DNA of 64,000 nt from an uncultured Litoreibacter sp. (GTDB taxonomy: Bacteria > Pseudomonadota > Alphaproteobacteria > Rhodobacterales > Rhodobacteraceae), in the NCBI GenBank assembly GCA_947494435.1, contig CANLUY010000004.1, forward strand, positions 8,106 through 72,105, in the 5' to 3' direction. Every line of letters begins with the position of its first letter. Position 1 is the stretch's first letter. The notes below the pieces were generated by a model. The model saw nothing but the letters and a program-made list of their open reading frames with translations, ran no database searches and had not been told where the DNA came from. Shown here piece after piece: positions 47,701 to 63,810 of the stretch. A program made the position numbers and the translations under genes.

Positions 47701-47900
47701 GGAGATCACTAAATATTCGCGAGGTGACCAATCATGACCATGCAGGGCCAATCTAACTTGGATCGCAGTTCTGCGCGGACACTTCAAAAGGCCGCATAAA
47801 TGCGTCCAGAAAAGCAGTGAAAGCTCCATGGCCTTAGTTGTGAGCACGGAAATAAAGAAGCAAACGCCATGGCTGGCGACTGCTTAGATTTCAAGCCATT

Positions 47901-48484: not shown

Positions 48485-48552
48485 ACGACTGTCCTTCAGG
48501 AATTTGGTTGTGAAGTTCGAGAGGGCCACCTGCCCTCCCGCGAGGTGGGCGT

Positions 48553-48753
48553 TCACTCGACGACCGGTGCATCGTCGGGGTCCGCCTTCGGCTCGAAGAG
48601 GACCAATTCGCCGTTGATCGGATTTGCAAAGAGCTGGATGGTCATGAAAGACTTGGCACCTTCGTTTTGAGGGAAGGCGACGCCAACTTTGTGAAAGCGC
48701 GTCTTGCCGTCTTTGCCGGTGTCGGGGGTTGTGACTGTGTAATATTTGGTCAT
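48553..48753 (-). CDS. 66-aa plasmid protein with acidic tail (possible ssDNA-binding)
   Basis: KDGKTRFHKVGVAFP, GELVLFEPKADPDD; RBS AAAGGA. Confidence 0.7.
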   Translation of the reverse strand: MTKYYTVTTPDTGKDGKTRFHKVGVAFPQNEGAKSFMTIQLFANPINGELVLFEPKADPDDAPVVE

Positions 48754-48794
48754 GTCGGTTTCCTTTCGTTTTCGATGCAAACGAGAAACCGGGA

Positions 48795-48889
48795 CCGGTC
48801 GGACTGGCTGTCACGCAGAACTTTGCTCCGCGCGGAATGGACGCGCAGCGGACAGGGGAAAGTTCTGCTTGAAGGGAGCCTGCGACCGG
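48795..48889. promoter_or_regulatory. Long imperfect hairpin, candidate single-stranded-DNA promoter (Frpo/ssi-like)
   Basis: CCGGTCG/CGACCGG outer and GCAGAACTTT/AAAGTTCTGC inner stems; homologous to 63417-63557. Confidence 0.6.
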
Positions 48890-49277
48890 CAGACAGGTCA
48901 GGTCACGGAGATTGCATCAGGAAGAAGACGAGAGGAAACCGACTGAGCAAGTTATGGCCACGACAACACCCGATTGACATGATGGTTTGAGCGTGGTTCA
49001 TAATGGCGATCGTTCATCTGCGAATTGTGCCTGTCAGGAATGAAATCCCTACCCGCCATCTGGCTTTTTGGTAGATGTTTGAGCGCAGATCCGTTGGCGA
49101 GCGCCGATTTGTACAGGACAAGACTTCTAGCCAGCAGAATGGTCGGGCCTGAATAACATCCTGCGAAGACGGCAGACCCCAAGCAACCAGTGACCCGGCA
49201 AGTGGCGAGATCAATATCATTGGCGCTCATTTCAAGTGGACTGTTCTAGTAAGTGGCTGGGTGCTTCGTTTGAGGAG

Positions 49278-49390
49278 GCAGCCGTTCATACAATGAGCCG
49301 CGAACGGCAGGAGAGAGCCCAAAGTGCAAAATGCTGCACCTTGCAACAAGGACCGAGATCTGCGGAAAGCCGTCTTTGATCTTAGCCAAA
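49278..49390 (+). repeat. Degenerate ~45-bp modular repeat units at cargo boundary
   Basis: GCAGCCGTTC...GCGAACGGCAGG...GAGCCCAAAG; 12-mer GCGAACGGCAGG recurs at 56873. Confidence 0.5.
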
Positions 49391-49510
49391 CCGGCCCATC
49401 GGTGACATTTGCCGGTTGGTAGAAACCTTTAAGAAGTTCTGCCTATTGTTCTTTCTAGAAAAGAAATCTCGGACTACGCCCCAGAACAACTACACGACGG
49501 TTGGCCAATT

Positions 49511-50191
49511 CTATGCCGCTGAAGTGTTCAATTTCCCTTCAAAAAGCGCGTTGACCTTCTCAGCTATTGCTTTCCCAAGATCTCGATTGTTTTCCGCCGT
49601 GAAATGGATCCCATCGACTCCGTCAGTGCTGATGTGATCACCGGCGTTTAAGAAATGCACTTTCATGAAGTCCGCGAGATCGCCGTAGAGCTTGGCAAAC
49701 TCCTGAGATTTCTCATGGGCGCCTCCGAACAGTGACTGGAAATAGGCGTGCGGCATGGGCGTCAGCGGTGGCGGTGCTATGATCAGAACCTCAGGTGCCG
49801 GATAGGTCGTACCAACCCCACCGGCAGACCCGAGAACCTGACCCACGAGTTTTGACATGCCAGCAGCGATCTCGAACGGGGTGCGGTGGAAGTAGGCTTT
49901 TGTGTCGTTGGTTCCCAACATCACAATGACCAAATCCAAAGGCAAATGACTTGCCAATGCGGATGGCAAATAAGCGCTGCCGTCAAGTCTGGGATCTGTT
50001 GGATCGTCCAGCATAGTAGTTCGAGCGCTCAACCCCTCTTCAATGATGGTGTAGCCGTTGCCGAGTTCCGACTGGAGCACACCCGTCCAACGTACATCGG
50101 CGGGATAGCGCGTTGTTGGAACACCCTCTTCGACGGGGATCCAGCCCCAGGTCAGGGAGTCCCCGAAGCACATGATGCGTTTGTCTGACAT
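49511..50191 (-). CDS. SGNH hydrolase, MsAcT-like aryl esterase/acyltransferase
   Basis: CFGDSLTWGW, EEGLSARTT, MLGTND, SAGGVGTTYPAP, DGIH. Confidence 0.9.
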   Translation of the reverse strand: MSDKRIMCFGDSLTWGWIPVEEGVPTTRYPADVRWTGVLQSELGNGYTIIEEGLSARTTMLDDPTDPRLDGSAYLPSALASHLPLDLVIVMLGTNDTKAYFHRTPFEIAAGMSKLVGQVLGSAGGVGTTYPAPEVLIIAPPPLTPMPHAYFQSLFGGAHEKSQEFAKLYGDLADFMKVHFLNAGDHISTDGVDGIHFTAENNRDLGKAIAEKVNALFEGKLNTSAA

Positions 50192-50215
50192 GGAGCGTAC
50201 CTCTCTAAAACAGTT

Positions 50216-51154
50216 TTAAGATTTGCGGGTGTTGAGACCGTAGAAGACCGCGGCCAAAAGGATGATCAGGCCACGCGCGATCTGTTTTCCGGGTTCGGGG
50301 ACGCCAAAACTTGTCATCACAACAAAGAGCAGTGCAAAGCACATGACGCCGAAAAACGGCCCCCAGACACCGCCATCTCCTCGTCCAAAGACGACGCCGC
50401 CCAGGATCGTTGCAGCAACAGCATCGATCGGCATTTCGAGGCCAAGACGTAGACTGCCCACAGCAACCGACGCGGATTGAACGATCGCCGCGACACCTGC
50501 GAAGAAACCAGCCAGAACGTGTGCGACAAGCACCGTGCGCTCGACCGGGACCCCGCTGAAATGGGAGGCGGTTGGGTTTTCGCCCACTGCCATGACAAAA
50601 CGACCGTAGACAAAGCGTGACAGGAAGACCGCCATCGTCATTGTCAGAACGGTCCAAACAATAACGGGCAGCGGGATCGGCCCCAGCTTCATTTTGTATA
50701 TGTCATTCATGAGTTCCGGCATGTTGCCCGGTGGTTTTCCGCTGGCGAGGAACTGGACAAAGCCAGTGATAATGACTGTCACGGCCAATGTTGCAATGAC
50801 GGCTGAGACACGACGCATTGCAACGAGATAACCGTTAAACAACCCCACTGCGCAGCCGATCGCTAAAGAAAGGATGATGATCAGGGTAAGTGGCATGTCA
50901 CCCAGTAGGCCCGATGCAATCAGATAGTTGATGAGCAGCAACACCCCCGCACCCGACAGATCAATGGAGCGGACACGCATAACAAGCATTTGCCCAAGAA
51001 CGAGGATGCCCAAGGGCGCAACTTGTCGGATAAAGATACCCATCACGTTGAGGTTCATCAGCTGCGGCTTCGTAAGCCAAAGCGTCGCCAATAGAGCCGC
51101 GAAGACGAAGTAAGCAGGTGGTATGCGGCTCGCTGATTTAAGAAACGAGGCCAT
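50216..51154 (-). CDS. Sugar ABC transporter permease (RbsC-like, CUT2)
   Basis: IDLSG, AVGENPTASHFSGV, DAVAATILGG. Confidence 0.9.
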   Translation of the reverse strand: MASFLKSASRIPPAYFVFAALLATLWLTKPQLMNLNVMGIFIRQVAPLGILVLGQMLVMRVRSIDLSGAGVLLLINYLIASGLLGDMPLTLIIILSLAIGCAVGLFNGYLVAMRRVSAVIATLAVTVIITGFVQFLASGKPPGNMPELMNDIYKMKLGPIPLPVIVWTVLTMTMAVFLSRFVYGRFVMAVGENPTASHFSGVPVERTVLVAHVLAGFFAGVAAIVQSASVAVGSLRLGLEMPIDAVAATILGGVVFGRGDGGVWGPFFGVMCFALLFVVMTSFGVPEPGKQIARGLIILLAAVFYGLNTRKS

Positions 51155-51156
51155 CC

Positions 51157-52143
51157 TTACAGCCCCATCTTCTTGCGCGATTGCATGGCCACGACCAATA
51201 GAAGGATGACGCCCTTGATCGCCCCTTGGAGGAATGCGGACAGGCCGGCGAGGTTCATGCCATTGGCCAAGAGCGCCATAAGAACAGCGCCAAGAATGCT
51301 ACCATGCAACCCGCCAACGCCACCGGACAATTGGGTGCCACCGATTGCGACGGCTGTGATGGAATCTAATGCAAACTGCGAGCCCACACCGGGATCTCCA
51401 GATGCGATCCTGCCAGCAATGAAGGTCCCTGCTAGCGCCGCAAAAAGGGCGCTGAAAACATAAGCGATTATGATACTGCGTCCGTCTTTTAGGCCAAAGT
51501 TGTGCGCTGTATCGTCTTGGCCCGATGCAACCCCACCCCCTATCGCGAAGAGATACAGTCCAAAGCGGGATCCATGTAGGATCTTCCAGCCGAGTGCCAC
51601 GACAAAGATCGCCCAAAAGACGGGAGCTGGAACCCCAAAGACCGAACCCGTCACTAGACTGACTACGAGATCAGGGACTGATCCTCCTGCCACTGGACGC
51701 AAAATTTGGGCGATGCCCAATACAATGAACTGCATCGAAAGGGTCGCAATAATTGGGTGGACGTTGAGCCTGACAATCGCCACGCCATTCACAATACCAA
51801 TGAGAACGGCCGCCAAGAACACGAGAGGGATTAACACGAGGGGCGATCCGTCAAGCGCCAGGATGGCGGTAGTCAAGCTCATGACGGAGCCAACCGATAA
51901 ATCCATACCGGCGAGTACGATCACGATCATTTGCCCAATCGCCACGATGATCAAAGGCATTGCCTGCGCAAGGAGATTGTTGGCATTCTGTGGTGTCGCG
52001 AAGTCATCCGTTGTCGCGAGGAGGATCAACACCGTCGTTACGATCAGGAGAAGCGCTGCCCACCAGTTACCTTGTCGTGAGTTCTTGCCAAGCCAACGAT
52101 TTGGTTTGGTGCCCGGGAGATTGTGTGTTTTGGAAGTGCTCAT
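51157..52143 (-). CDS. Sugar ABC transporter permease (RbsC-like, CUT2)
   Basis: GMDLSVGS, DSITAVAIGGTQLSGGVG. Confidence 0.9.
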   Translation of the reverse strand: MSTSKTHNLPGTKPNRWLGKNSRQGNWWAALLLIVTTVLILLATTDDFATPQNANNLLAQAMPLIIVAIGQMIVIVLAGMDLSVGSVMSLTTAILALDGSPLVLIPLVFLAAVLIGIVNGVAIVRLNVHPIIATLSMQFIVLGIAQILRPVAGGSVPDLVVSLVTGSVFGVPAPVFWAIFVVALGWKILHGSRFGLYLFAIGGGVASGQDDTAHNFGLKDGRSIIIAYVFSALFAALAGTFIAGRIASGDPGVGSQFALDSITAVAIGGTQLSGGVGGLHGSILGAVLMALLANGMNLAGLSAFLQGAIKGVILLLVVAMQSRKKMGL

Positions 52144-53633
52144 GTCTTCAGTGCCGCATTGAGGATGGCGTGTTCTGTTGCTTCGCAACCCAGCATCTTG
52201 GCGACGATCTTCCTGTCATGAACAACGAGAATGTTGTCACACAGACCGATCAGTTCGACGGTTTCGCGGGATAGCACGATGATGGCTTTACCTTGCTCTG
52301 CAAGGTCTCGAAGCAGTCGATAAATCTCGGCCTTGGCACCAATGTCGACGCCGCGCGTTGGCTCTTCGATAATGAGAATATCCATATCCGATGCGAGGTA
52401 ACGACCGAGGAGAACCTTTTGTTGGTTACCTCCTGACAGGGCACCGACCGGCATATTGGGACTTTCTGCTTTGACCCGCATCTCTTTCATGATTCGAATT
52501 ACAGTCTCCCGAAGGCGGATCAGCGGCTTAAATCCCGGGCGGGCCGACTGAAGAGAGATACCGATGTTTTCGGAGATTGGCGCCCCCAACAGAAGGCCTT
52601 CCTCTTTTCGATCTTCCGGCACGAACCCGACACGTTGGCGCTGCATTGAACGAACGCCGACCTGGCGCGCGAGGGGCAGCTTCACCGGAGTATTATTGAC
52701 AGAAAGTGCTCCGTGGGTTCCTGGAACCTGACCAATAAATGATCGAACAATCTCGCTTTGGCCTTGCCCTTCCAGACCAGCGATGCCCAATATCTCACCT
52801 GCGTGGAGGTCAAAGCTGAGAGGTTCTGTGCCCGCTGGCAGAACCAAATCCCTGCAAGACAAGACGACATGACCCAGATTGGTTGCGCGGCACGGGAACA
52901 AATCTTCAAGATCACGACCAACCATGAGAGCGATAAGCGCGTCCGGTGTAAGTGTATTAAGCGGTTGAGTTGAGACGTGTCGACCGTCTTTCATGACCGT
53001 CACGTCATCACACATGGCGAAAATCTCATCCATACGATGAGAGATGTAGATGATCGCTTTGCCTGCAGCTTTGAGTTTACGGATTTGCGCATTCAGAACC
53101 TCGACATCGGCCGCGTTCAGCGCTGCGGTCGGTTCATCGAGAATGAAAACTTGAGCGTCTGCCTTGATACCATGGGCGATCTCTACGAATTGACGTTCAG
53201 CAATGCTGAGTTCTGAAACGAGCGTATTGGGATCAATTGTCATTCCCAGCTCTGCCAAGGCATCGCTGGTACGTGCTGTCATTGCGGCACGGACTGGGAT
53301 GCCGAATTGTCCCACGATCTCTTTGCCAAGAAACATATTTTCCGCGATTGTCAGGTTGGGCAGAAGGGACAGCTCTTGAAAGACTGTCGAAATCCCTGCC
53401 GCGAGTGCTTGGCGTGGGTCCGCGAATGTGACGACCTGCCCCGCAATCCTGATTTCGCCGCTGTCTGGTCGATGCACGCCAGCGAGCATCTTCATCAACG
53501 TCGATTTGCCTGCGCCATTCTCGCCCATCAAGGCGTGGACACGGCCGGGCGAGATTTCAAAGGACACGTCATCGACAGCAAGTGTCGACCCGAATGCTTT
53601 GGTTACGCCCTTCATGGATACTGCTGGCAGCAT
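52140..53633 (-). CDS. Sugar ABC transporter double-domain ATP-binding protein (RbsA-like)
   Basis: GENGAGKST, ILDEPT, LSGGNQQK, EEPTRGVDIGAK. Confidence 0.95.
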   Translation of the reverse strand: MLPAVSMKGVTKAFGSTLAVDDVSFEISPGRVHALMGENGAGKSTLMKMLAGVHRPDSGEIRIAGQVVTFADPRQALAAGISTVFQELSLLPNLTIAENMFLGKEIVGQFGIPVRAAMTARTSDALAELGMTIDPNTLVSELSIAERQFVEIAHGIKADAQVFILDEPTAALNAADVEVLNAQIRKLKAAGKAIIYISHRMDEIFAMCDDVTVMKDGRHVSTQPLNTLTPDALIALMVGRDLEDLFPCRATNLGHVVLSCRDLVLPAGTEPLSFDLHAGEILGIAGLEGQGQSEIVRSFIGQVPGTHGALSVNNTPVKLPLARQVGVRSMQRQRVGFVPEDRKEEGLLLGAPISENIGISLQSARPGFKPLIRLRETVIRIMKEMRVKAESPNMPVGALSGGNQQKVLLGRYLASDMDILIIEEPTRGVDIGAKAEIYRLLRDLAEQGKAIIVLSRETVELIGLCDNILVVHDRKIVAKMLGCEATEHAILNAALKT

Positions 53634-53708
53634 GAAATTGAACCTTGGTGAAAGAAAGGGCGCTCCCGCGGAGTAAACTCCGTGAGAGCAAGTCTGACAG
53701 GGAGGGTG

Positions 53709-54773
53709 TCAGTTACCGTAGAGTTCCTGGAGGGTCTCTTCCGGCAATTCAGTTGGCCACCAGACGTTGGCGGAGAGATCATCGCGATAATACTCGGCGG
53801 CCTTTTCCGCGTTCCAGCCCTCGGGTTCGTAGATGTAGTGCTTGTGCAAAGCCTCACCTTCCAAAAGAGCGACAGCTGCGCGCACCCCTGCAGCAGCTTG
53901 TGAAGGGCTGTATTCCGCGACAATTGACGGGTACCCCAGCTCAAGCCATTGCCCAAAGAAGCCGTTGTTTCCCTCACCTGTGATTGGCGGGATGTCGGCT
54001 CCGAACTCTGTCAGCACATCAACGCAAGCACGGGTCATGTCCGCACCAGACGACCAGATTGCGTCGACCTGTGGGTCATTGAGATAGAAGGTTTCGCACA
54101 GGCTCTTGCCCAGGTCATAGACCCAGTTGCCGTAGTCCTCCTGAGTGATATCGATGTTGGTCCCTTCCAAGGCCTGCATCAACCCATTGTAGCGGTTGAT
54201 GTCTTCTGGATGGGACGGCAATCCACGAAGTACCCAGATTTTGCCCTCGCCACCAAGTTGCTCGACAAGAAAGTCGCCCATGACGCGGCCAAAGTTCTCC
54301 GCACCGCCTTGAATATCGACAGTGAAGTTCTGGTTTTCAGTGCGGCCAGTGTGAACGACAACAGGAATGCCAGCATCAATCGCCATTTGAATGCCTGCAT
54401 CTGCCGAAGTGGGTGTCACGGGCATGACAATCAGAACGTCAGGATCCTGAGCAATCAGATCTTCAATGTCGGCGACCTGCTTTGCTTGATCGAAGTTCGC
54501 GTCGAGCATGATGAAGTTTTCAATGCGGGCATCGCCATCTGCAATACCTTTCGCTTCGTGCGCCGTCTGGACCGTCCAAGTGTTCGCGTTTACGCCAAAG
54601 TGGCTCATTGCGATTGTCCAAGGCGCCTCTGTCTGAAAGGCGCCGGCCTCAACAATAGAATTCCCTTCCGGGCGCGGTTCGACTCCGTCCATCAGGTTTA
54701 CGTCTTGCGCGAGCGCAGACGATGCGAGCAGTGCTGCGCACACGGACAGTGTTGTCAGGCGAATGGTGGTCAT
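53709..54773 (-). CDS. Sugar ABC transporter periplasmic binding protein
   Basis: Signal peptide after RBS GGAGG; KQVADIEDLIAQDPDVLI, AGIPVV. Confidence 0.9.
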   Translation of the reverse strand: MTTIRLTTLSVCAALLASSALAQDVNLMDGVEPRPEGNSIVEAGAFQTEAPWTIAMSHFGVNANTWTVQTAHEAKGIADGDARIENFIMLDANFDQAKQVADIEDLIAQDPDVLIVMPVTPTSADAGIQMAIDAGIPVVVHTGRTENQNFTVDIQGGAENFGRVMGDFLVEQLGGEGKIWVLRGLPSHPEDINRYNGLMQALEGTNIDITQEDYGNWVYDLGKSLCETFYLNDPQVDAIWSSGADMTRACVDVLTEFGADIPPITGEGNNGFFGQWLELGYPSIVAEYSPSQAAAGVRAAVALLEGEALHKHYIYEPEGWNAEKAAEYYRDDLSANVWWPTELPEETLQELYGN

Positions 54774-54923
54774 TTTTGGGTCTCCTCCCCTATTGCGATC
54801 ATGCCTTTCCCTGCCCCAAACCGCTGTTTTGAGCGGCTGGGTCTCTGCTTGCGAAAAGCAGGTTTTGGAAAGGCGATGAGTCTCCTCCTGCGCTCGTTTC
54901 AAACAGTCTGACGGTGCCGTGTC

Positions 54924-55004
54924 AATACTTATTCAGTATGAATGAATAAGTATTTGATTGCGCACTCGTGCTTCCCCTGACACATTCATCTTAACTGAAT
55001 AAGT
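54924..55004. promoter_or_regulatory. Two ROK-type operators
   Basis: AATACTTATTCA-N7-TGAATAAGTATT (54924-54954) and ATTCA-N7-TGAATAAGT (54984-55004) between divergent operons. Confidence 0.7.
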
Positions 55005-55049
55005 CGGAGCGCATTCGAAAAGCCCGCGAAAAATGCGAGAAAAAATGAC

Positions 55050-55694
55050 ATGAAAACAGTGCTTTGCTTCGGAGACTCCAATACGCACGGACAGATACCC
55101 GGCGGCACGCCGCTCGATCGCTTTGGCCACACTGAACGTTGGCCCGGAGTATTTGGTCAGGTCTTGGGAAAAGAGTGGCACGTGATTGAAGAAGGTCTTA
55201 GCGGACGCACAACCGTTTATGATGACCCCATCGAAGGGGACATAAAGAACGGGAAGACTTACTTGCGGCCCTGCCTGATGAGCCATGCACCGCTTGATCT
55301 TATCATTTTGATGCTTGGAACGAACGACCTGAAAGCGCGCTTTAATCAACCTGCGTCGGAGATTGCGATGGGTATTGGATGTCTCATCCACGACATACGA
55401 GAGCTTTGTCCTGGCCCCGGTGGCCACTGCCCTGAAATACTTGTGGTGGCCCCACCACCTATGCTTGACGATATTGGGGAATGGGAAGGCATATTCTCCG
55501 GTGCCCAACCTAAAAGCCATCAACTGGCTCACGCCTTCGAGGTTATTGCAGATTCACTGGAGGTTCATTTCTTCGATGCCGGCACGGTGATCCCATCAGA
55601 TCCAGCGGACGGCTTTCATCTTAGCCTTGAGGCCCACGCGGTTCTGGGACGAGCACTCGCACAAGAAGTCCTCAATATAGGGTGGTCTGACTAA
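55050..55694 (+). CDS. Second SGNH/GDSL hydrolase
   Basis: CFGDSNTHG, EEGLSGRTT, MLGTND, DGFH. Confidence 0.9.
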   Translation: MKTVLCFGDSNTHGQIPGGTPLDRFGHTERWPGVFGQVLGKEWHVIEEGLSGRTTVYDDPIEGDIKNGKTYLRPCLMSHAPLDLIILMLGTNDLKARFNQPASEIAMGIGCLIHDIRELCPGPGGHCPEILVVAPPPMLDDIGEWEGIFSGAQPKSHQLAHAFEVIADSLEVHFFDAGTVIPSDPADGFHLSLEAHAVLGRALAQEVLNIGWSD

Positions 55695-56800
55695 TGCCCG
55701 ACATGCGCTTTGCCCCGCCCAACCCAATCCGTATTGCCGATCGCGCCAGCGGGATGAACGCTGTGAGCGTGCGCAGCTACAACGAGCGCCTCGTCTTGTC
55801 ATTGTTGCTTCAAAATGAGGGGCTTTCTCGCATGGAGATCGGGACGCGGACGGGCCTTTCGGCGCAGACCGTTTCAGTGATTGTCAGATCGCTAGAACAG
55901 GAAGGGTTGGTTTCCAAGGGCGAGGCAGTCAAGGGACGCATGGGGCCGCCGACCATCCCACTCTCGCTTAATCCGGAGGGGGCCTATTCTGTTGGGATTA
56001 GTCTGGGGCATCTGCACACCGACGTTGTGATGATCGATTTCGTAGGACAAGTGAAGTTTTATACGTCATTGCCGATCCCAAGCGACAGTGAGACTACAAA
56101 TCATTCCAAGCTCGTTGAAACGGTTAGGCAGGCCTTGGATGCCCTGCCCGACAAACAGGCGGGCCGTCTGGCCGGTATCGGGATCGCCATGCCCGAAGAT
56201 CAGGACGAACTGGCACTTGGGCCGATTGGAATGGCTGACCGTTTCGAAGCCCTCGGGAAAGAAATCGAAGATGCGATGGGCATCGAGGTCTACGTTCAGA
56301 ACGATATTACTGCCGCCGCTGCGGGTGAAAGCATGTTTGGAGCGGCGAAAACACTTGATGACTACATTTTCTTTTACATCGGCGCGCGCTTACACCACAG
56401 ACTGGTCTTAAACCATCAGATTTTCCAAAGCAGGGTCCAGGAAAGTAAACCTGTTGGCCTCCTGAACCTCGAAGAGAGGATTTCAAAGACTACCCAATCC
56501 CCACAAGCGCTTTGGCAACGAGGGCAGGATTGGCCTGATTATGGTTCAGAAAAGGATCGATGGGTTGCCGATTGCGTGAATTCCTTAAGGGAGTCGCTCG
56601 ATGCCGCTTCACAGTTTTTACCTGTCAGCACGGTCATCGTCTCGTCTTATGCGCCGTCTGATGTTTGTATAGAGATTGCGGACAAACTCTCGAGTTGCAC
56701 CCAAGATGTCGAAGTTGCTGCAGGCCACCTCCAACTCTCCCCTAAAGCGCTCGGCGCTGCAAGTTTGCCATTTAGCTCAAAGTTCACCGTCGAAAGGTGA
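55694..56800 (+). CDS. ROK-family transcriptional regulator
   Basis: HTH LSRMEIGTRTGLSAQTVSVIV, GRMGPP, VQNDITAAAAGE. Confidence 0.9.
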   Translation: MPDMRFAPPNPIRIADRASGMNAVSVRSYNERLVLSLLLQNEGLSRMEIGTRTGLSAQTVSVIVRSLEQEGLVSKGEAVKGRMGPPTIPLSLNPEGAYSVGISLGHLHTDVVMIDFVGQVKFYTSLPIPSDSETTNHSKLVETVRQALDALPDKQAGRLAGIGIAMPEDQDELALGPIGMADRFEALGKEIEDAMGIEVYVQNDITAAAAGESMFGAAKTLDDYIFFYIGARLHHRLVLNHQIFQSRVQESKPVGLLNLEERISKTTQSPQALWQRGQDWPDYGSEKDRWVADCVNSLRESLDAASQFLPVSTVIVSSYAPSDVCIEIADKLSSCTQDVEVAAGHLQLSPKALGAASLPFSSKFTVER

Positions 56801-56804
56801 AATG

Positions 56805-56884
56805 GCGGACTTTCGAGATGCAATGATCGAGGATAGCAAGGTCTCGCGTTTTATTGGTTCGCACATCGTGCAGCGAACGGCAGG
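56805..56884 (+). repeat. Degenerate interspersed repeat at cargo boundary
   Basis: GCGGACTTT (also near 37.37 kb) and GTTCGC-N10-GCGAACGGCAGG. Confidence 0.45.
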
Positions 56885-56940
56885 TGTACGGATGGGTTTT
56901 CAGGGCAAATGCATTGCCTTGCCCGCTTCCGGAGCGTTAC

Positions 56941-58173
56941 CTACAAGCCGAGCGCTGTCTCCATTCTCTCATGTTCAAATGCGGGTGCGCACCGCCTCAA
57001 TGCAGCGCCGGTTATGCCATGCTGGCGGAGTGTTTCGCCCCAGATTGTTGCAATCGTGTTGGCCATGTTTTTCGCCATATCCCTGGCATCGGCATCTGAG
57101 ATGTCAAAGAATGGCGCGGCATCAATCACCGCTTCCACGGAGGGTTCAAAGCCGTGAACGTCACTTATCCCGGTTTCGAGAGTAGGTTGCCTGCGTGGCT
57201 GCGGATTGACGTCAAACATCGGTGACAGACGCCAGCGGTTGTCACGGACATAGAGAAGACCATGATTTTTGAGATGGTCATCAGTGTTTGTGATCAGCAC
57301 GGTGAACAACAGGCGTTGCCACAGTTCCCGAATGTCCTTTTCCGGCAAGACGGACATTTGCCGCAAAGCATCCACGATGTCGGTATAGTAGCCGTGGGCG
57401 GACCCTTTCTTGCCCAAGGCCGTCCGGGCCGACATGTAGGGCAAGCGGCCACCCTCACGACGATCAAAGCGCTTGATGAGGCCAACTGGATGCTGGCTGG
57501 CGGCCAGTTCGAGCCGCGCTTCCGGTGTCCGAATACCTACCGCGCTGGCCATTGCAAGTGTGGCGATTTCCAACCGCTCTACTGGCCATGTGTCATCAAT
57601 TGAGGTGAACTTTGCGATCCAGAGGTTCTCACCATCCTCGACATTGGCTTTTGGACGCGCACCACCAAGGGAACCTGCCGCGCCGACAAGATCACGCGCT
57701 TCGGCTTCCGCGCCTTCCGGATCCCGTTCATACCGCACTGCGATCGCGCGCAGTTCTTCGATGTTGGCCAAGCGTGGCACAGGAGGTTGCTCCGGATGGA
57801 ACAACTCTCCTTTCTCGTTAAAGAACCGCAATGCCCCGTGGCGGGCCTTGTCATCGGCCGCAACCAGATAGTCGAATTCCGTGACCCCCTCGCCATGCAC
57901 GCGACGAATAAGCTTACGTCCCCAGCTATCAGGCGATGTATCCGTAAAGGGCCCCGCCAAGACATCTCGACGTCGGCTTTCGCGCCCCTCTGCAGAGAAA
58001 TGAAATGGCGCACGGCTGCGCGGCATGTCAGGGGCAAGATCAAATCCTATCGGGTCTTCAAGCCATCTCTCGTCATAGATGAAAGTGGAATGTGACCGCC
58101 GACCATCGGTTTCAAAAATTAAGCGCCCAACAGGGATACAGGCATTCCCAAGGACCACAGAAGCTTCAGACAT
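56941..58173 (-). CDS. hipA: HipA-family kinase toxin
   Basis: HipA N-terminal couple domain (PDSWGRKLI), GSLGGARPKA, NTDDHLKNH, LSPMFD. Confidence 0.9.
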   Translation of the reverse strand: MSEASVVLGNACIPVGRLIFETDGRRSHSTFIYDERWLEDPIGFDLAPDMPRSRAPFHFSAEGRESRRRDVLAGPFTDTSPDSWGRKLIRRVHGEGVTEFDYLVAADDKARHGALRFFNEKGELFHPEQPPVPRLANIEELRAIAVRYERDPEGAEAEARDLVGAAGSLGGARPKANVEDGENLWIAKFTSIDDTWPVERLEIATLAMASAVGIRTPEARLELAASQHPVGLIKRFDRREGGRLPYMSARTALGKKGSAHGYYTDIVDALRQMSVLPEKDIRELWQRLLFTVLITNTDDHLKNHGLLYVRDNRWRLSPMFDVNPQPRRQPTLETGISDVHGFEPSVEAVIDAAPFFDISDADARDMAKNMANTIATIWGETLRQHGITGAALRRCAPAFEHERMETALGL

Positions 58174-58577
58174 CAGAATGCTGTCCCTTCATCGTCATCA
58201 AGCCCGGTTGACCCTTTTGAAGAGCCTCTCAGGTGATCGGGAATGGTCTCTGTTCCCTTACTAGTCCGCATGGATGCCGATGAGCCGCGCTGTCGGATGC
58301 GCTCCGGGAGTTTCTCACGGTCCAGTCCGATGCCAGTCGAATCTGAGGCTGGATCGGCGATCTCAGCCAAACGGTCCAGCATGCCCAAAGCCAGAAGCGC
58401 CATGGCAAAGGTCTCAAGCCGGACACCACCATCACCCCGCTCAAGCTTCGCAAGGGTCTTATCGCTGACGCCAATTCGGCTACAGAAATCCGCAACCGAC
58501 ATGCGGCGCCTTTTGCGCGCGGTTTGGATATCGCGACCAAGCAGCGACAAAGCGGATTTAACTTGCAATGAGCTCAC
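58173..58577 (-). CDS. XRE/HTH antitoxin (HipB-like)
   Basis: ARKRRRMSVADFCSRIGVSDKTLAKLERGD; stop overlaps hipA ATG; probable GTG start after GGAGAG. Confidence 0.85.
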   Translation of the reverse strand: MSSLQVKSALSLLGRDIQTARKRRRMSVADFCSRIGVSDKTLAKLERGDGGVRLETFAMALLALGMLDRLAEIADPASDSTGIGLDREKLPERIRQRGSSASMRTSKGTETIPDHLRGSSKGSTGLDDDEGTAF

Positions 58578-58596
58578 AACACTCTCCAAGGTTACA

Positions 58597-58766
58597 TCGG
58601 ATATTTGTCCGGTTTAAAATCATTAGACCGGACTTTTCTCCGACATAAAGCCCAGCCTTCCAAAAAGCAAGGTTTTACACGCTAACACACTCAAACCTCC
58701 GACTTAACGCACATAAGCAGAGTTATTATCCGACTTAGAAACTCCATCTTACTAATACCCGACAGA
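58597..58766. repeat. Two YCGGA-N6-TCCGR palindromes and a ~30-bp-periodic CCG-core repeat series
   Basis: Palindromes 58597-58612 and 58628-58643; TCCG(A/G)(C/T)(A/T)TA at 58608, 58639, 58698, 58729, weaker at 58758. Confidence 0.55.
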
Positions 58767-58904
58767 CATAAGCCTCATTCCCTGCCCAATGATCTACCGC
58801 ATAGCCCTCGAACAGGTTATCGACTAGCACCGCCCCAAATTCACGAAATCCTGCAGATTCACTCTTCAGCACAACTGCGAACATCGACTGGCCGACCACC
58901 GGTA

Positions 58905-60185
58905 TCATGCCGCAACTCCGCTCAATCGACCAAAGAAACTGCGCTCGAGATGCAACTCCCCTGCCCCGGCCTTCTCGACCATACCGCGCAGATATCCACC
59001 TGGTGAGGTGACTTCACCCGTGCTGTGTTTCTCAAAAACCAACACCAAAGCGGCCGTTGCCACCTGTTTGCCCAGCATTTCCTGCGCAGTGTTCCACGCA
59101 TGCTCAGAAATACCAATCATAGGCCTGAGTTGCCCAGCAACCCGGTGCAAATCGCCCCAATCCTTCAGGAATCCGCCCATACTCCGCGCCCAGGACGCAA
59201 ATTCAGGACAAGCTTGCATGATCGTTGGCAGGTCAACTGCTGTCCGCTTCTTGCGAACCTCAACAACCCAGTCTTCTAACGCGCTATCAAAACGCTCCTC
59301 CGGTGGCGCATTGGGCACCACGTCCGCCGCTTCCTCTTTTTCTGAGGAATTACTAATTACAGAACTGAGTTGTTTTGTAACTAGTATATGAGGGTCGGAA
59401 TTGACCTCCCTGGGGTTCATTTGTTGAGTCTTCTGTGAAACTTGTTCGACAGTCACAGCGGTGTTTTCCACAACTTCTTCCGGCTGGACTGCTTTGAGGT
59501 AAGCAGTTTCCACACGCCCCTGAAGCTCTTTGAACCATGTCAGCAGGCCCATAAGCCGGTCCGATCCTTCGTTTCGGCGTGGCAGACGGCCAAGTAGGTC
59601 CTCGAACAGACCCGTAAACTGCACCCACGGGCCGCTGAGCGCCCCGCTGACGGCTGCTTCGATCCGTGCGCGGATCATGCGCCGTGCGACCGTGATTTGC
59701 CGCTTCAGTCGCTGGCACAGCTCTCGTTCCGCCTGCAACTGGGCGTGCAACTGCTCAAATTCGTCCACACGGGCCGACAATGGTGACAGGTCGAAGCCAT
59801 AGGCCTCGATGATAACGCCCTCAGCGTCTCTCTTGCCCCATCGCTTCCCATTGGGGCTGTCTTTGAAGGCAATGGCCCCTGCCTCCGCTAAACGCCGTGC
59901 ATGGCGCTTCAGAGCGGAAAGCGAGAAACCTGTCTGTTCCATCAGATAGGCGTTGGACGCCCAAACGATGGGCCGTCTGCCCTCTTCCCAGTCTTGAGCC
60001 TGTGTGAAGGCTCCCAGCGTGTCCAGAAGCATCATGTCGCCAGCCTTGAGACCGATATGTGCTCCAACGCGCTTTACCGCAACAAATGCTCTTGTTTTGG
60101 GTACAGCTACCCGTTCACCGGCTTGGGCAAGTTGCTCTGCAACCCCAAGACCCGGTGTCGGCTTGCGCCAACCTGTGTTCTTCAT
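58905..60185 (-). CDS. repC: RepC replication initiator of a RepABC replicon
   Basis: DSPNGKRWGKR, AYGFDLSPL, ACPEF, SPGGYLRGM..KA..GEL; AT-rich internal segment ~59340-59400 (candidate oriV). Confidence 0.95.
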   Translation of the reverse strand: MKNTGWRKPTPGLGVAEQLAQAGERVAVPKTRAFVAVKRVGAHIGLKAGDMMLLDTLGAFTQAQDWEEGRRPIVWASNAYLMEQTGFSLSALKRHARRLAEAGAIAFKDSPNGKRWGKRDAEGVIIEAYGFDLSPLSARVDEFEQLHAQLQAERELCQRLKRQITVARRMIRARIEAAVSGALSGPWVQFTGLFEDLLGRLPRRNEGSDRLMGLLTWFKELQGRVETAYLKAVQPEEVVENTAVTVEQVSQKTQQMNPREVNSDPHILVTKQLSSVISNSSEKEEAADVVPNAPPEERFDSALEDWVVEVRKKRTAVDLPTIMQACPEFASWARSMGGFLKDWGDLHRVAGQLRPMIGISEHAWNTAQEMLGKQVATAALVLVFEKHSTGEVTSPGGYLRGMVEKAGAGELHLERSFFGRLSGVAA

Positions 60186-60252
60186 GAGTTTTTCTTCGCC
60201 TCCTCTGCTTGACTGGAGACAAAAGAAATCCGTTCACCGAATCGGTGTTTCG

Positions 60253-60339
60253 TTGACAACGATTTGCGTGGAGTGCTACCTATCAGTTGCAACACAGATA
60301 GAATGGCTCTCTTACCGCAAGGTGGAGGGCTTTTCTTTT
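60253..60339 (+). ncRNA. repABC counter-transcribed RNA (ctRNA) with its promoter
   Basis: TTGACA at 60253 in repB-repC gap, antisense to repC mRNA; terminator hairpin 60306-60330 plus TTTTCTTTT; RNA roughly 60288-60339. Confidence 0.8.
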
Positions 60340-60419
60340 GCCGTTAAATCACTTCATACATGATCCTATTTCTTGCCTCATTTGGGTTCGAAGAGCACCG
60401 TCTTCGCGGCTCCTGCCTC

Positions 60420-61457
60420 TTACTTCGAACCATGTTTCTCTAAGAACTCCGCTATGACGTCTCCCAATCCATTGAGGACATCCTGATCCAGTGCCAAGCC
60501 GGTAGCAGCAACAGATAGCCGCCCCCCCTGCCCTGTAACGCTGAGATTTCGCGATCCAATCTTACGTTTAACTGTCAGCTTTTTAGGTTTAGTCAGTTTC
60601 TTTTTTGCCGCCTTATCAGGCTTGCCAGTGAGGTCATTGAGGACCTTTTCTAAGTCGCGGTGACTGAGTTCGTAGACATTTTTGCACGTGTGCAAAATCT
60701 GATCTTTCGCCGCAAAAACAGCCCTACCCCGCGACACAGCGCTGTTGTGAACGCCAACTCGTCGCGAAAACTCAGTAGCTGAAAGCTTCCCATCGGGTGT
60801 CGTGCCTTGAAGTTGATCAAACATCTCCCCAATGGAAACAAGACGCTCGAATGCGCTGAGGTTTTCACGCTCTTCGTTCTCGCGAAAGCGCATAAACAGC
60901 ATTTCAAACTGTTCTTCCTTCGAGCCACGTTGTGATTGAGGGACAAGCAACGCCCGCACAGGCAAGCCGAGCGCTGACAAGATAGCGTGACGGCGGCGTC
61001 CAACGATCAATTGAAACTTTACACCCTCAACGTTCTCCGGCTCACGTTCGTCTGGACGCCAATTAGGGTCTGCAGGCCAAACATGGATTGGTGTATCCTG
61101 GCCATTCTTGGCAATACTGTCCTTTAGCGCCTCAAAAGCATCTTGGTCGCGCCAGTCATCTCGGCGGTCCGTCCCAATCACGTCAATGATTTGAGATGGG
61201 TCAATACGCAACTCCTGACGGCCAGAAAGAATTCGCTCAACGACCCGCGCACGTTCGGTCTGCAATATCTGTTCTGCGTCCGACAACGCACCCGCTTTCC
61301 ATGCACTGCCAGAACCGCCTAGACGCGGCTTCACTCCAGCAACAACGGGAGACGCACCTACAGCAGTGCTTGCAAGATCAATTTCGTCCTTGTCTTCGAC
61401 CACTGCCTCATCAACTCTCTTTTTCTTGAGGACCGAGCTGCTCAATGTTCTCTTCAT
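60420..61457 (-). CDS. repB: RepB/ParB partition protein
   Basis: SIAKNGQDTPIHV, LIVGRRR, ENEERENLSAFER, HTH-like FSRRVGVHNSAVSR. Confidence 0.9.
   Translation of the reverse strand: MKRTLSSSVLKKKRVDEAVVEDKDEIDLASTAVGASPVVAGVKPRLGGSGSAWKAGALSDAEQILQTERARVVERILSGRQELRIDPSQIIDVIGTDRRDDWRDQDAFEALKDSIAKNGQDTPIHVWPADPNWRPDEREPENVEGVKFQLIVGRRRHAILSALGLPVRALLVPQSQRGSKEEQFEMLFMRFRENEERENLSAFERLVSIGEMFDQLQGTTPDGKLSATEFSRRVGVHNSAVSRGRAVFAAKDQILHTCKNVYELSHRDLEKVLNDLTGKPDKAAKKKLTKPKKLTVKRKIGSRNLSVTGQGGRLSVAATGLALDQDVLNGLGDVIAEFLEKHGSK
60680..60697. promoter_or_regulatory. parS-like palindrome inside repB
   Basis: TTTTGCACGTGTGCAAAA, near copy of 62969-62990. Confidence 0.6.
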
Positions 61458-62809
61458 TCAGTTTCCTCCTCAAAATCATAGAAATTCTTCATCCACGCAT
61501 CCGCGTAGCCCCGTTCGAGACTCGGCCATAAACGTGAGACAATGGCGTCGTTGACGGCATCAGCGTTTTCTATGAAACGGTTGATACCCTTCTTCTTGCC
61601 GGGAGTATCTGGCTCGTACTCATAGACAGACTGATAAACATCCGAAGCATTTGAGATTGCATCGGAGCGCAAATAGAAGACAGGGAGAACCTCATCCGGG
61701 CAGTTTTCAAGCAAGTTTCCGACTTGCGTGAGATCCTGCTCATTTGTGCGCTGTACAATAGTCGGAAGGAGCATATGAGCCGCACCGCCCATATCAATAC
61801 GATCAGTCACAAAAATATGGCGCAACATTGTTAGTAGACCGGTTACGAAGGTCGACAGCGTCGCGATGTCAAAGCCCTTCATCGTCTGAGGAATAATCAG
61901 TGATGTAGACGCCATCACGTTATTTAGCTGGAAGAGAGTCAAGGCAGGCTGATAATCAATGATTATACAGTCTAACGTCTCATTTAGAGCCTGATCCAAC
62001 TTCGCTCGATCGACTCTATTGTCTACCACCAGCTCATTTGGTCGCGTGACTGGAAGATTGCCTTCTTTCCAGCGATCAATGGAGTCCCGTAAGAACCTAT
62101 AGAACCGTTTCTCAGGCGTCCCGGCACGTAAAAGACGGGCAATCTGGATCTCGCCCTCAGAGGTCTCACCATGTGCAGGAACCAGCCTTACGCCCGGCCA
62201 CGACGTCTTCTTGAAGAAGCCGTCTAAAGTCTCAGCGTCATAGTCAGTGTAAGGAATGGTTTCATCCGTTTGAAACAAGCCAGCAAAGTCGACCATGGTT
62301 GGTGTTTCTGCGTCAGGCAAAGTCGGCATCTCTTCGCCGCCAACAAAGTAGAGCGTAATTGTACTTTGTGGGTCAGCATCCATGACACCAACCCGCATTC
62401 CGTAGTTGAGGCTCAAATACTGCGCAAAGTGAGCCGCGCTCAATGATTTCGCAGTTCCGCCTTTCTGGCTCGCAAAGGAGATAACCGGCAAAGGGTCGTC
62501 TGGCTTGCGCCATGCTAGGAAGTGCTCCGGCCGTTTGGCAGAGGCTGCCATAAGTGCGCGGATATGCATCAGTTCAGTGAGCGTGAAGACACGTTCACGA
62601 CCAACATGTTTGCCCGCCGGAAAATCTTCATTGTCCTTGGCAAACTTTGTTAGATGCTGATGGCTGATATCAAGGAAGCGTGCACATTGGCGCATTGACC
62701 AAGAGCGCTTGATGCGCTCTCTCATCGTGAGTTCCTTGTTGACCGAAACCATGGTCCGGCCAAGGCCTCGCTCGAGTTCCTGAAGGAATTGTTCTATGCT
62801 GCCGCTCAT
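61454..62809 (-). CDS. repA: RepA/ParA partition ATPase
   Basis: N-terminal HTH, deviant Walker A QKGGTAKS, DADPQ, IIIDYQP; start MSGSIEQ after GAGGA. Confidence 0.92.
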   Translation of the reverse strand: MSGSIEQFLQELERGLGRTMVSVNKELTMRERIKRSWSMRQCARFLDISHQHLTKFAKDNEDFPAGKHVGRERVFTLTELMHIRALMAASAKRPEHFLAWRKPDDPLPVISFASQKGGTAKSLSAAHFAQYLSLNYGMRVGVMDADPQSTITLYFVGGEEMPTLPDAETPTMVDFAGLFQTDETIPYTDYDAETLDGFFKKTSWPGVRLVPAHGETSEGEIQIARLLRAGTPEKRFYRFLRDSIDRWKEGNLPVTRPNELVVDNRVDRAKLDQALNETLDCIIIDYQPALTLFQLNNVMASTSLIIPQTMKGFDIATLSTFVTGLLTMLRHIFVTDRIDMGGAAHMLLPTIVQRTNEQDLTQVGNLLENCPDEVLPVFYLRSDAISNASDVYQSVYEYEPDTPGKKKGINRFIENADAVNDAIVSRLWPSLERGYADAWMKNFYDFEEETE

Positions 62810-62968
62810 AACACCGTCCTCATTCGATTCTCTTGTGGAACCGATTCCGCAATTTAATAGCACGGTTTTGAAGGTTTTGTATAGATATTGTACGCCTACC
62901 AGATATCTAACGCACAATATGGACCACACTAATAGGAAAAGCGAACAACGTTCGGCAACGGCCTCAGA

Positions 62969-62990
62969 CTTTTTGCACGCGTGCAAAAAG
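62969..62990. promoter_or_regulatory. parS-like perfect 22-bp palindrome upstream of repA
   Basis: CTTTTTGCACGCGTGCAAAAAG. Confidence 0.7.
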
Positions 62991-63003
62991 CCAAGATGTA
63001 AGT

Positions 63004-63031
63004 GTTGCTGGCCGGAGAGCCGGCCAGCAAC
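63004..63031 (-). terminator. Hairpin after DUF736 gene
   Basis: GTTGCTGGCCGG-agag-CCGGCCAGCAAC perfect 12-bp stem; weak U-tract. Confidence 0.6.
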
Positions 63032-63036
63032 TGGGC

Positions 63037-63375
63037 TTACGAAACTTCTTTCGGACCCCAAGGAATGATCGCTTGCAGCGCATCATCGTCCTGGTTCGCG
63101 GCCTTGCCGAGGTTCGCATTGAATGCATAGTCCCGGACCGTCAGCGAAAAGTAGTCTGCGCCGGTGTCGCGGTTCTGTTTCTTCCAGATGCCGCCACACT
63201 CAACGAGGCGACCACGTGGTGAGCGGCCAAGGACACGGTGGGTCGGTGCCATCGGGTTATCGCTGATGATGGGCTCCACGGTGATATCGAGGTCGAAGGT
63301 CAAAGTTGAAATTGAGCCGGACCCTTTGGCGGTCTCGATATCGGTGCTTTCGAATTTGATGCAGTTGGTGGTCAT
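63037..63375 (-). CDS. DUF736-family protein
   Basis: GSISTLTFDLDITVEP, APTHRV, GGIWKK, DYFSLT; RBS AAAGGAG. Confidence 0.85.
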   Translation of the reverse strand: MTTNCIKFESTDIETAKGSGSISTLTFDLDITVEPIISDNPMAPTHRVLGRSPRGRLVECGGIWKKQNRDTGADYFSLTVRDYAFNANLGKAANQDDDALQAIIPWGPKEVS

Positions 63376-63416
63376 TGCTTTGCTCCTTTGGTTGGTGTTG
63401 CAATGATGGTCACCTT

Positions 63417-63557
63417 GCAGAGGCTTAAGAGCCGAACACACCGAAGGCGCAGCGAAGCGGAGAAGGGAAGGGGGGACAGAATTTTGCCGCGCGAGGAATG
63501 CCCAATGGGCAGGGGACAATTCTGGCAAACGCCCTTTGTGTTCGGGTTGGCCTCTGC
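63417..63557. promoter_or_regulatory. Long imperfect hairpin, candidate ssDNA promoter (Frpo/ssi-like)
   Basis: GCAGAGGC/GCCTCTGC, CCGAACACA/TGTGTTCGG, CAGAATT/AATTCTG stems; core homologous to 48815-48868. Confidence 0.6.
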
Positions 63558-63810
63558 GACCAGCATGTCATGCAACTCCGACGCAAGGTGCAATTCGGAC
63601 CGCGCAGCAACTTCGAACTCCGGCATTGAGTCCCAAGGCAGATATCATGAGAGGCTTTGACGCTGAACTTTGGGCACCGCTCATAAGCCTGTAAAAAGAC
63701 AAACTTGGGGCCGTCGTTATACTGCCGGCGCCATAGACCTGAGCTCTCAAGGAAGAGGCCGATGGCAAAACACCACCGGCCTCATTGATGCTTACCCTGT
63801 CAGACGGTTT

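Follow-up and report, generated by a model that had tools for sequence, protein, structure and literature searches.

The locus analyzed here raises the question of why two homologous long hairpins stand just upstream of two minus-strand genes within one 64-kb stretch of DNA (the window). The sequence-only reading took them for promoters that act on single-stranded DNA (ssDNA) in the recipient of a conjugative transfer. The answer reached below, which has about an even chance of being right, is that both hairpins belong to a widespread structured element whose folded transferred strand launches early RNA synthesis. The features of the locus are listed in Table 1.

Table 1. Features of the hairpin locus in window coordinates
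Feature	Position	Strand	Remarks
HTH/RHH accessory protein, VirD2-like relaxase and VirD4 coupling protein	43066..47562	-	presumed lagging end
Canonical sigma-70 promoter, TTGACA-16-TATGAT	47565..47592	-	11/12; serves the accessory-relaxase-VirD4 operon
Candidate oriT region	47593..47864		intergenic; inverted repeat GGTGCGA-gg-TCGCACC at 47655-47670
Terminator-like hairpin with T-run	47865..47878	-	closes the mini-operon ahead of the oriT-like region
75-aa gene	47901..48128	-	third gene of the site 1 mini-operon
DUF2958 gene	48125..48490	-	second gene of the site 1 mini-operon; E 2.4e-39
66-aa gene	48553..48753	-	directly downstream of site 1
Site 1 hairpin	48754..48943	+	folds on the strand that is template for the 66-aa gene; placed by arms and fold
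Site 1 core	48808..48872	+	58.4 bits, E 2.5e-12
Site 1 P1 helix	48816-48824 paired with 48859-48867		
Site 1 10-nt bulge, CCGCGCGGAA	48828..48837	+	5' arm, which would be the template
repA-repB-repC operon	58905..63061	-	downstream of DUF736; order the same in relatives
DUF736 gene	63037..63375	-	directly downstream of site 2; PF05284, E 2.7e-10
Site 2 hairpin	~63380..63593	+	folding strand is +; placed by fold and family alignment
Side hairpin, GGCGC-AGCGAA-GCGGAG	63446..63462	+ (template)	between the site 2 core and the DUF736 gene; consensus GGCCGnAGCGnAGCGGAGGAC
Site 2 core	63469..63529	+	P1, TTTGC, bulge, P2, CAGGGGA; 61.3 bits, E 4.5e-13
Site 2 bulge, GCGCGAGGAA	63489-63498	+	within the site 2 core

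The core motif first read from the letters, CAGAAYTTTGC..CGCG(A)GGAATG..CAGGGGA.A.TTCTG, is present on the plus strand at both sites. A core covariance model was built from 73 copies outside the window, and a scan of the full 64 kb with this model returned exactly these two sites, both on the plus strand; the next best match scored 12.5 bits. The site 1 core consists of P1, TTTGC, the conserved bulge, a P2 apical hairpin with a C(GCA)G triloop, and CAGGGGAAA. The long imperfect stems of the earlier reading are real, but the extents it gave (48795-48889 and 63417-63557) are too short. Both hairpins are imperfect and ~190-215 nt long, and the site 1 span follows from its outer arms (48754-48773 and 48924-48943), which are 20 nt long and 90% complementary. 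At site 1 the base of the hairpin is 1 nt from the complement of the 66-aa gene ATG, and the 5' arm is complementary to the 5' UTR with its Shine-Dalgarno sequence; at site 2 the base is separated by ~5 nt from the complement of the ATG of DUF736. Similarity between plasmids ends at the outer edge of each hairpin, with the site 2 limit at ~63575-63593, a pattern that fits a self-contained element. Folded as DNA, the plus strand reaches -57.4 kcal/mol (z = -8.2) at site 1 and -55.3 kcal/mol (z = -4.8) at site 2, and 0/200 shuffles were as good in either case. The minus strand z scores are -6.6 and -2.5, respectively.

Conservation of the pairing was measured across the family. On the folding strand the element is a long imperfect stem with a covarying P1 and the arrangement TTTGC-Y-N-CGCG-R-GGAA-TG [P2] CA-GGGG-AAA, in which ~10 nt (N-CGCG-R-GGAA) bulge out of the would-be template arm. 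The columns of the bulge are unpaired and invariant or nearly so. Stem positions are paired in 89.4% of cells in 73 diverse copies compared to 65.4% in shuffles, and slid controls are at most 56.5% paired. The covariation score of 0.567 compares to 0.170 for shuffles and was matched by none of 500. In the site 1 family the outer stem also covaries, with U.G pairs on the plus strand. A search of the whole window against Rfam gave no match, and both sites returned only noise at E values up to 10.

G.T wobbles, folding energies and loop sequences distinguish between the two strands. The core contains 88 wobbles that pair on the template strand and 16 that pair on the sense strand, and the whole hairpin contains 142 and 39; the ratio is 70 to 24 in 58 representatives at most 80% similar, the copies being related by phylogeny so that these counts are not independent events. 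Of 114 copies, 111 fold better as the template strand (mean energies of -118.7 kcal/mol for template and -103.7 kcal/mol for sense), and with composition controlled the template z score is -4.93 versus -3.60, the template being more negative in 49/58. The two strands do not differ in one ICE copy (-69.1 and -67.4 kcal/mol). C(GNA)G triloops, a feature of DNA rather than RNA, cap the template strand in 23 and the sense strand in 3 of 71 distinct P2 segments. Selection appears to maintain folding in a single strand, the one that is template for the next gene, and this strand-specific signature is hard to account for except by function in one strand. The folded form is presumably DNA and not RNA.

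The position of the hairpins relative to the transfer genes suggests which strand this is. Both downstream genes point toward the relaxase module, as originally described, and the candidate oriT region between them and that module has no gene annotated in relatives. A putative MOBQ-like nick motif is confined to the window and the relative nearest to it. The relaxase homologue is co-oriented and 1.2-3.5 kb downstream of the motif at all 24 loci carrying one, and VirD4 is co-oriented downstream at 18/20. The layout matches the F plasmid, in which a single direction is shared by the leading genes, oriT and the tra operon. From this geometry, the folding strand is most likely the strand transferred in conjugation.

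Alpha-, Beta- and Gammaproteobacteria all carry the core, which was found in at least 120 genome contigs and 133 plasmid records. The carriers, hundreds in all, are plasmids and ICEs of marine roseobacters, rhizobia and Burkholderiales, and Tn4371-like ICE modules on clinical enterobacterial and Pseudomonas plasmids also carry the element; the suggestion of an alphaproteobacterial variant does not survive this distribution. In the great majority of ~127 copies the element lies 70-210 nt 5' of a co-oriented gene start. The gene after the motif encodes DUF736 (~71 cases), ArdC (17), the 66-aa family (9) or SLOG (7), and also ArdA or ParD. These are classic establishment or anti-restriction families, and expression of ardC in the recipient is reported to be required (PMC7213743).

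The 66-aa gene followed by DUF2958 is one of the gene sets found behind the motif, and DUF2958 is co-oriented downstream in 15/15 loci. The 66-aa product has no Pfam match. The rep genes also follow in the same direction (repA at 12/12 and repC at 9/9 loci). Two or more copies often occur within a few kb, each ahead of a gene, and where a locus has multiple copies they are co-oriented in nine cases and opposed in one. Six related plasmids carry the two sites 9-16 kb apart, with orientation and order shared. By their sequence context, DUF736, DUF2958 and the 66-aa protein are candidate early-acting establishment factors. The consensus is well defined and would help to mark leading regions and transfer orientation in unannotated elements.

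The genes behind the hairpins have no detectable duplex sigma-70 promoter. No sigma-70 site of at least 9/12 lies within ~250-400 nt of either hairpin. The stems lack -35/-10 hexamers, as had been noted: the best match in either arm of 60 representatives averages 6.7/12 compared to 6.9 in shuffled sequences, and none reaches 9. Consensus duplex promoters are in use on this replicon, as the 11/12 promoter of the relaxase operon shows. The hairpins do not look like intrinsic terminators of the upstream gene, which would be GC-rich hairpins with a T/U run behind them: there is no T-run after either hairpin on either strand, and terminator scans gave nothing at the hairpin ends.

The hairpins probably turn on the first-entering genes, or prime DNA synthesis, before the double-stranded stage. 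The transferred strand would enter the recipient as ssDNA and fold into the hairpin, and a host enzyme, most plausibly RNA polymerase, would recognize the folded form and begin RNA synthesis toward the downstream gene. In this scheme the element would head the genes nearest oriT on the leading side, and early, transient expression would follow for the 66-aa, DUF2958 and 75-aa genes from site 1 and for DUF736 and then repABC from site 2. The RNA started at the hairpin might prime complementary-strand synthesis as well. A sense RNA would also fold and bury the Shine-Dalgarno sequence, a point against this scheme, as is the RNA coverage of a homologous hairpin described below.

The closest known systems are the Frpo/ssi elements of IncF and IncI1 plasmids (F, ColIb-P9, and pESBL classes 1-3). 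They share with this element a long imperfect hairpin in the template strand, and both recur in one orientation, in several copies, before establishment or anti-restriction genes that point at oriT, on the leading side in Frpo/ssi and probably so here. The element differs in that the -35/-10 stem hexamers that define Frpo/ssi are absent, its invariant core with the bulge is distinct, and its hosts include Alpha- and Betaproteobacteria and ICEs. The covariance model applied to F plasmid positions 44-70 kb gave a best score of 15.6 bits (E = 0.07) compared to 58-77 bits for members. The ssDNA promoter proposal is partly supported: it gains from the covariation, strand bias, downstream genes, relaxase geometry and F-like layout, and loses on the hexamers and the match to the F region. 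The best reading is a new family of single-strand-active leading-region signals with Frpo-like action that is not itself a member of Frpo, its output presumably being transcription. In the literature found, the only single-strand promoters with experimental proof are those of enterobacterial IncF/IncI1 plasmids, where sigma-70 hexamers define them, and no description of this hairpin element was found. The element is a searchable candidate for early anti-restriction and establishment expression in other conjugative elements during the first minutes in a host.

An unlikely alternative is that the element is a priming signal only, an ssi/sso-type site for a short primer RNA whose position before genes is incidental. 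The strand-specific evidence fits this explanation equally, and the hairpins resemble the ssoA sites of rolling-circle plasmids, ssDNA hairpins of 150-200 nt whose action depends on strand and orientation and which serve host RNA polymerase for RNA synthesis. The stem of an ssoA carries RSB and its terminal loop carries CS-6 (TAGCGT/A), where the primer RNA ends. The side-hairpin loop AGCGNA, kept across most families, contains AGCG and bears a tentative likeness to the CS-6 loop. The double role in transcription and priming reported for Frpo (PMC12672017) also leaves room for priming. Unlike ssoA, the element belongs to conjugative elements, where it immediately precedes genes and recurs in multiple copies. 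Its regular spacing to co-oriented gene starts argues against priming alone, and repeated copies each before a gene are a promoter pattern that priming does not need.

It is similarly improbable that the hairpin works as the leader of a sense RNA, a 5'-UTR structure that hides the Shine-Dalgarno sequence and start codon and tunes translation or stability of read-through mRNA. The minus strand does fold (-46.9 kcal/mol, z = -6.6 at site 1), the Shine-Dalgarno region is within the outer stem, and the DUF736 start codon could be paired within a local stem. In four (meta)transcriptomes, RNA-derived contigs span a homologous hairpin from end to end at a depth at least that of the gene, which indicates that the region exists as RNA in some cells, in data that do not resolve strand, DNA carry-over or copy number. 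Against a leader, the wobbles, energies and loops favor the opposite strand, and positions that are wobbles on the template strand become A.C mismatches in the sense RNA. Rfam contains no match. The conserved block starts at the hairpin, so the promoter of a full-length leader would fall in non-conserved DNA.

There is little likelihood that the hairpin is a protein-bound or protective ssDNA site, bound by an element-encoded protein (ArdC, DUF736, a ParB-like protein or the relaxase, for example) and serving protection, recircularization or recombination with no RNA synthesis. The invariant bulged core looks like a specific recognition site, and ArdC is described as an ssDNA-binding protein (PMC7213743). 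No one candidate protein family accompanies all copies, the fixed position ahead of gene starts is unexplained, and conservation from Alpha- to Gammaproteobacteria points instead to a universal host factor. A cis-encoded plus-strand antisense RNA that represses the gene, as FinP or Sok do, is highly improbable: it would account for the plus-strand G.U preference and the abundant RNA coverage of the hairpin, but such an RNA would need a promoter within the 5' parts of the unrelated DUF736, ArdC, ArdA, SLOG and 66-aa coding sequences, a promoter-like site was looked for and none was found, no plus-strand T-run follows either hairpin, and C(GNA)G triloops are a DNA feature.

Within the preferred reading of an ssDNA-active signal that starts early RNA synthesis, the bulged core suggests a more specific and tentative possibility. 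The core, TTTGC-Y-N-CGCG-R-GGAATG / CAGGGGAAA, could be a pre-opened entry site, and the element a hexamer-independent class of single-strand promoter or primer, although this is more doubtful than not. Host RNA polymerase or primase would then enter at the bulged core of the transferred-strand hairpin, and plasmids and ICEs of Alpha-, Beta- and Gammaproteobacteria would launch DUF736, ArdC, ArdA and, here, repABC while the DNA is single-stranded. If read-through mRNA hides the ribosome-binding site, translation in this version would come only from transcripts started on ssDNA. 6S RNA is a long duplex-like hairpin with a conserved asymmetric unpaired middle, and the likeness, a mechanistic analogy only, is to an unpaired middle that a polymerase might treat as an already opened promoter. 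6S acts as a regulatory RNA, in contrast to this gene-proximal DNA element, and the Rfam search of the window and sites gave no 6S match. The integron attC site is likewise an imperfect hairpin whose function relies on one folded strand delivered as ssDNA, and its recognition is strand-specific. The present element has no associated integrase and no R/L boxes, and it lies before establishment genes rather than around cassettes.

Two homologous hairpins, sites 1 and 2, are the only copies of the motif in the window according to a covariance model of the hairpin core built from 73 outside copies. The sequence-only reading had proposed them as single-stranded promoters for early expression in the recipient; the core it described is present at both sites and its hairpins are real, but they extend further than it had placed them. 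Also as proposed, each hairpin lies immediately upstream of a minus-strand gene; its base is within 1-5 nt of the complement of the start codon. Predicted DNA folding energies were -57.4 kcal/mol (z -8.2) for the + strand and -46.9 (z -6.6) for the minus strand at site 1, and -55.3 kcal/mol (z -4.8) versus -42.6 (z -2.5) at site 2. The 66-aa protein encoded after site 1 was considered as a short DUF736 protein and rejected, as no similarity was found. A mobile repeat or MITE is rejected, since the 64-kb window has just two copies, each at a gene head and with no target duplications, and their flanks are conserved within backbone modules.

Positions of the hairpins, neighboring genes and minor features (window coordinates unless a locus is named)
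Feature	Position	Strand	Remark
VirB-type type IV secretion system	about 25-37 kb
HTH accessory protein, VirD2-like relaxase and VirD4 module	43066-47562	minus
Near-consensus sigma-70 promoter	47565-47592	minus	11/12 matches; upstream of accessory-relaxase-VirD4 operon
93-aa ORF	47566-47847	minus	overlaps oriT-like region
Inverted repeat	47655-47670		in oriT-like region
Terminator-like hairpin	47865-47878	minus	ends 66-aa/DUF2958/75-aa three-gene unit
66-aa gene	48553-48753	minus	after site 1; then DUF2958, then 75-aa gene
Site 1 hairpin	48754-48943		outer arms 20 nt, 90% complementary
Cargo	49511-54902	minus	GDSL lipase gene and sugar-type ABC transporter operon
hipB-hipA toxin-antitoxin pair	56941-58589	minus	adjoins repC
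repA-repB-repC	58905-63061
19-nt palindromes	60679-60697; 62971-62989
DUF736 gene	63037-63375	minus	after site 2; then repABC
DUF736 leader	63373-63412	sense
Site 2 hairpin	about 63380-63593
Side hairpin	63446-63462	+	AGCGNA loop
Motif before DUF736, 299-kb E. coli plasmid	L126 6989-7049		Tn4371-like ICE module
Motif before DUF736, P. aeruginosa megaplasmids (420-470 kb)	L127 5989-6049		Tn4371-like ICE module
Sub-threshold matches, F plasmid	L128 14422-14466; 19811-19856; 9973-10049	minus	14.5-15.6 bits

The template-strand (window + strand) consensus reads P1a - TTTGC - Y - N - CGCG - R - GGAA - TG - [P2 hairpin] - CA - GGGG - AAA - P1b. The sequences of helices P1 and P2 vary among copies while complementarity is kept. 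Across 73 copies with at most 93% similarity, 89.4% of cells paired, compared to 65.4% in shuffles and at most 56.5% in slid controls, and the covariation score of 0.567 (0.170 in shuffles) was reached by none of 500 shuffles. RNAalifold independently predicted the same helices, and 11 of 17 pairs show compensatory changes. The outer stem of the site 1 family, which holds the Shine-Dalgarno complement, covaries too. Most families also have a side hairpin between core and gene (template-strand consensus GGCSG-N-AGCG-NAG-CGGAG in alignment A2) with a conserved AGCGNA loop.

Folding of the sense strand is expected of an mRNA leader, and folding of the template strand of either a transferred-strand element or an antisense RNA. 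G.T pairs, which distinguish the two, numbered 88 on the template strand and 16 on the sense strand in the core, 142 versus 39 over whole hairpins at positions whose register agrees between the strands, and 70 versus 24 in 58 representatives with at most 80% similarity. Of 114 copies, 111 fold better as the template strand, which also has the more negative composition-controlled z-score in 49 of the 58 representatives; one ICE copy folds alike on both strands. Among 71 distinct P2 segments, 23 have the apical triloop C(GNA)G, a classic extra-stable DNA mini-hairpin loop, on the template strand, and 3 show the mirror case. Transcription-coupled deamination would bias the G.T counts in the opposite direction. 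A cruciform in duplex DNA predicts no strand asymmetry and is rejected.

Both hairpins and their downstream genes are conserved (blastn, about 77-81% identity) on plasmids of Leisingera, Phaeobacter, Roseivivax, Dinoroseobacter, Sulfitobacter and others, and similarity between plasmids ends at the outer edge of each hairpin. Itself a conjugative repABC replicon from the Roseobacter group, the window is closest among public sequences to a contig of Yoonia sp. I 8.24, whose proteins are 92-96% identical. One-genome-per-species contigs were scanned with the sense-strand pattern CCCCTG N5-16 CATTCC N CGCG NN GCAAA, which gave at least 120 stretches against the 3 to 10 expected by chance from our own arithmetic. 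Hosts among the matches listed were Rhodobacterales, Hyphomonadaceae, Caulobacterales, Sphingomonadales and Hyphomicrobiales, together with Burkholderiales, Nitrosomonas and Gammaproteobacteria. A 48-nt pattern matched 133 plasmid records, mainly large conjugative plasmids of Enterobacteriaceae and Pseudomonas aeruginosa. The motif is not an alphaproteobacterial variant, which had been one suggestion. On those plasmids it sits in a Tn4371-like ICE module in the order radC, AAA ATPase, DUF932, ParB-like protein, motif, DUF736, HTH regulator and DUF2958, followed further along by repA, parA and relaxase; all are co-oriented except the AAA ATPase and the HTH regulator on the opposite strand.

The gene after the motif (127 copies) is DUF736 in about 71, ArdC in 17, the 66-aa family in 9 and a SLOG/YAcAr protein in 7, co-oriented and 70-210 nt away. 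The motif pairs with varied first genes, since ArdA (a Pseudomonadales MAG, L029 about 1129-1800), a ParD antitoxin and a glutaredoxin-like gene each follow it in single loci (L029/L123/L122). Homologues of the window relaxase lie 1.2-3.5 kb downstream and co-oriented in 24/24 loci, VirD4 is downstream and co-oriented in 18/20, and repA (12/12) and repC (9/9) come after DUF736-type copies. Six related plasmids carry the two sites 9-16 kb apart, co-oriented and in an unchanged order with respect to the relaxase. Extra diverged copies found with the covariance model share the orientation of the first in loci L011, L046, L073, L077, L080, L100, L118 and L122 and in the window; one, at L009, is opposed. 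The relaxase gene is normally the last to enter the recipient, and the 5' end of the DNA leads the transfer (PMC11541004), so the leading side should be toward higher coordinates and the transferred strand should be the + strand. We infer that the transferred strand is the better-folding one. A MOBQ-like nick motif, AAGGGCGC, was rejected as a nick locator because it is confined to the window and its closest relative and is not conserved. These results identify a conserved, covarying, strand-specific element that heads putative leading-region genes across many conjugative elements of proteobacteria; the sequence-only finding is real and more general than supposed.

The lack of sigma-70 hexamers in the stems was confirmed, with none above chance on either hairpin arm, and no duplex promoter-like site was found for either hairpin-led unit. 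By eye, the outer arm of several families has a -35-like TTGACC, TTGAAG or TTGCGG with no consistent -10 after it, and sigma-54, sigma-32 and ECF-type spacings did not fit. Published ssDNA promoters (Frpo, ssi and pESBL classes 1-3) have as their defining feature stem-borne -35/-10 boxes, which the window hairpins lack. The layout is the same as in F, running in one direction from motif through small genes and an intergenic oriT-like region to the relaxase operon; in F, ssb, psiB, an antirestriction gene and a methylase face oriT, and traM onward run in the same direction. The covariance model found no match in the F leading region. Its sub-threshold hits there lie on the template strand just upstream of ssb, a hypothetical gene after hok (hok-DUF932 interval) and the methylase gene, presumably the expected places of Frpo-type hairpins, and appear to be generic hairpin matches rather than homologues. 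The element may work like Frpo, but the absence of stem boxes and of an F match places it outside the Frpo family. Rfam 15 contains nothing that matches it at either gathering or permissive thresholds, and full-text literature searches covering the core sequence, DUF736/DUF2958, ardC promoters and ssDNA promoters in ICEs turned up no account of it.

The most likely function of the element, at about even odds, is to signal the start of early expression and/or priming while the DNA is single-stranded. Whatever drives expression of the hairpin-led units should be inside the hairpin because conservation begins there. Priming only is one rival; we take the side-hairpin loop to resemble the CS-6 loop of ssoA origins. 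An antisense RNA, another rival, would share the template-strand fold. A protein-binding site is a further rival: the N-CGCG-R-GGAA stretch (about 10 nt) is invariant and bulges out of the 5' arm. The remaining rival, a sense-RNA leader, runs against the strand asymmetry. Four public RNA libraries yielded contigs that span a homologous DUF736 gene plus its entire hairpin, with the hairpin at least as deeply covered as the gene; mapping stops where homologues diverge, the contigs are unstranded and DNA carry-over is possible. The hairpin is represented in RNA libraries, and it may have RNA-level roles. In a sense RNA the full hairpin would be predicted to bury the ribosome-binding site; speculatively, read-through transcripts would be silent and hairpin-started ones translatable. 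In the DUF736 leader and its homologues, an invariant UCAUUGC could pair with the start-codon-containing GCAAUGA, which would put the Shine-Dalgarno in a loop as a possible local translational switch.

The oriT-like intergenic region is flanked by the sigma-70 promoter and the terminator-like hairpin. The 93-aa ORF overlapping it is unannotated in related plasmids and is probably not a gene. The cargo lies between two conserved backbone modules, a position that holds other cargo in related plasmids. Two near-identical palindromes, TTTTGCACG(T/C)GTGCAAAA, one within repB and the other between DUF736 and repA, resemble parS sites or operators belonging to the repABC system.
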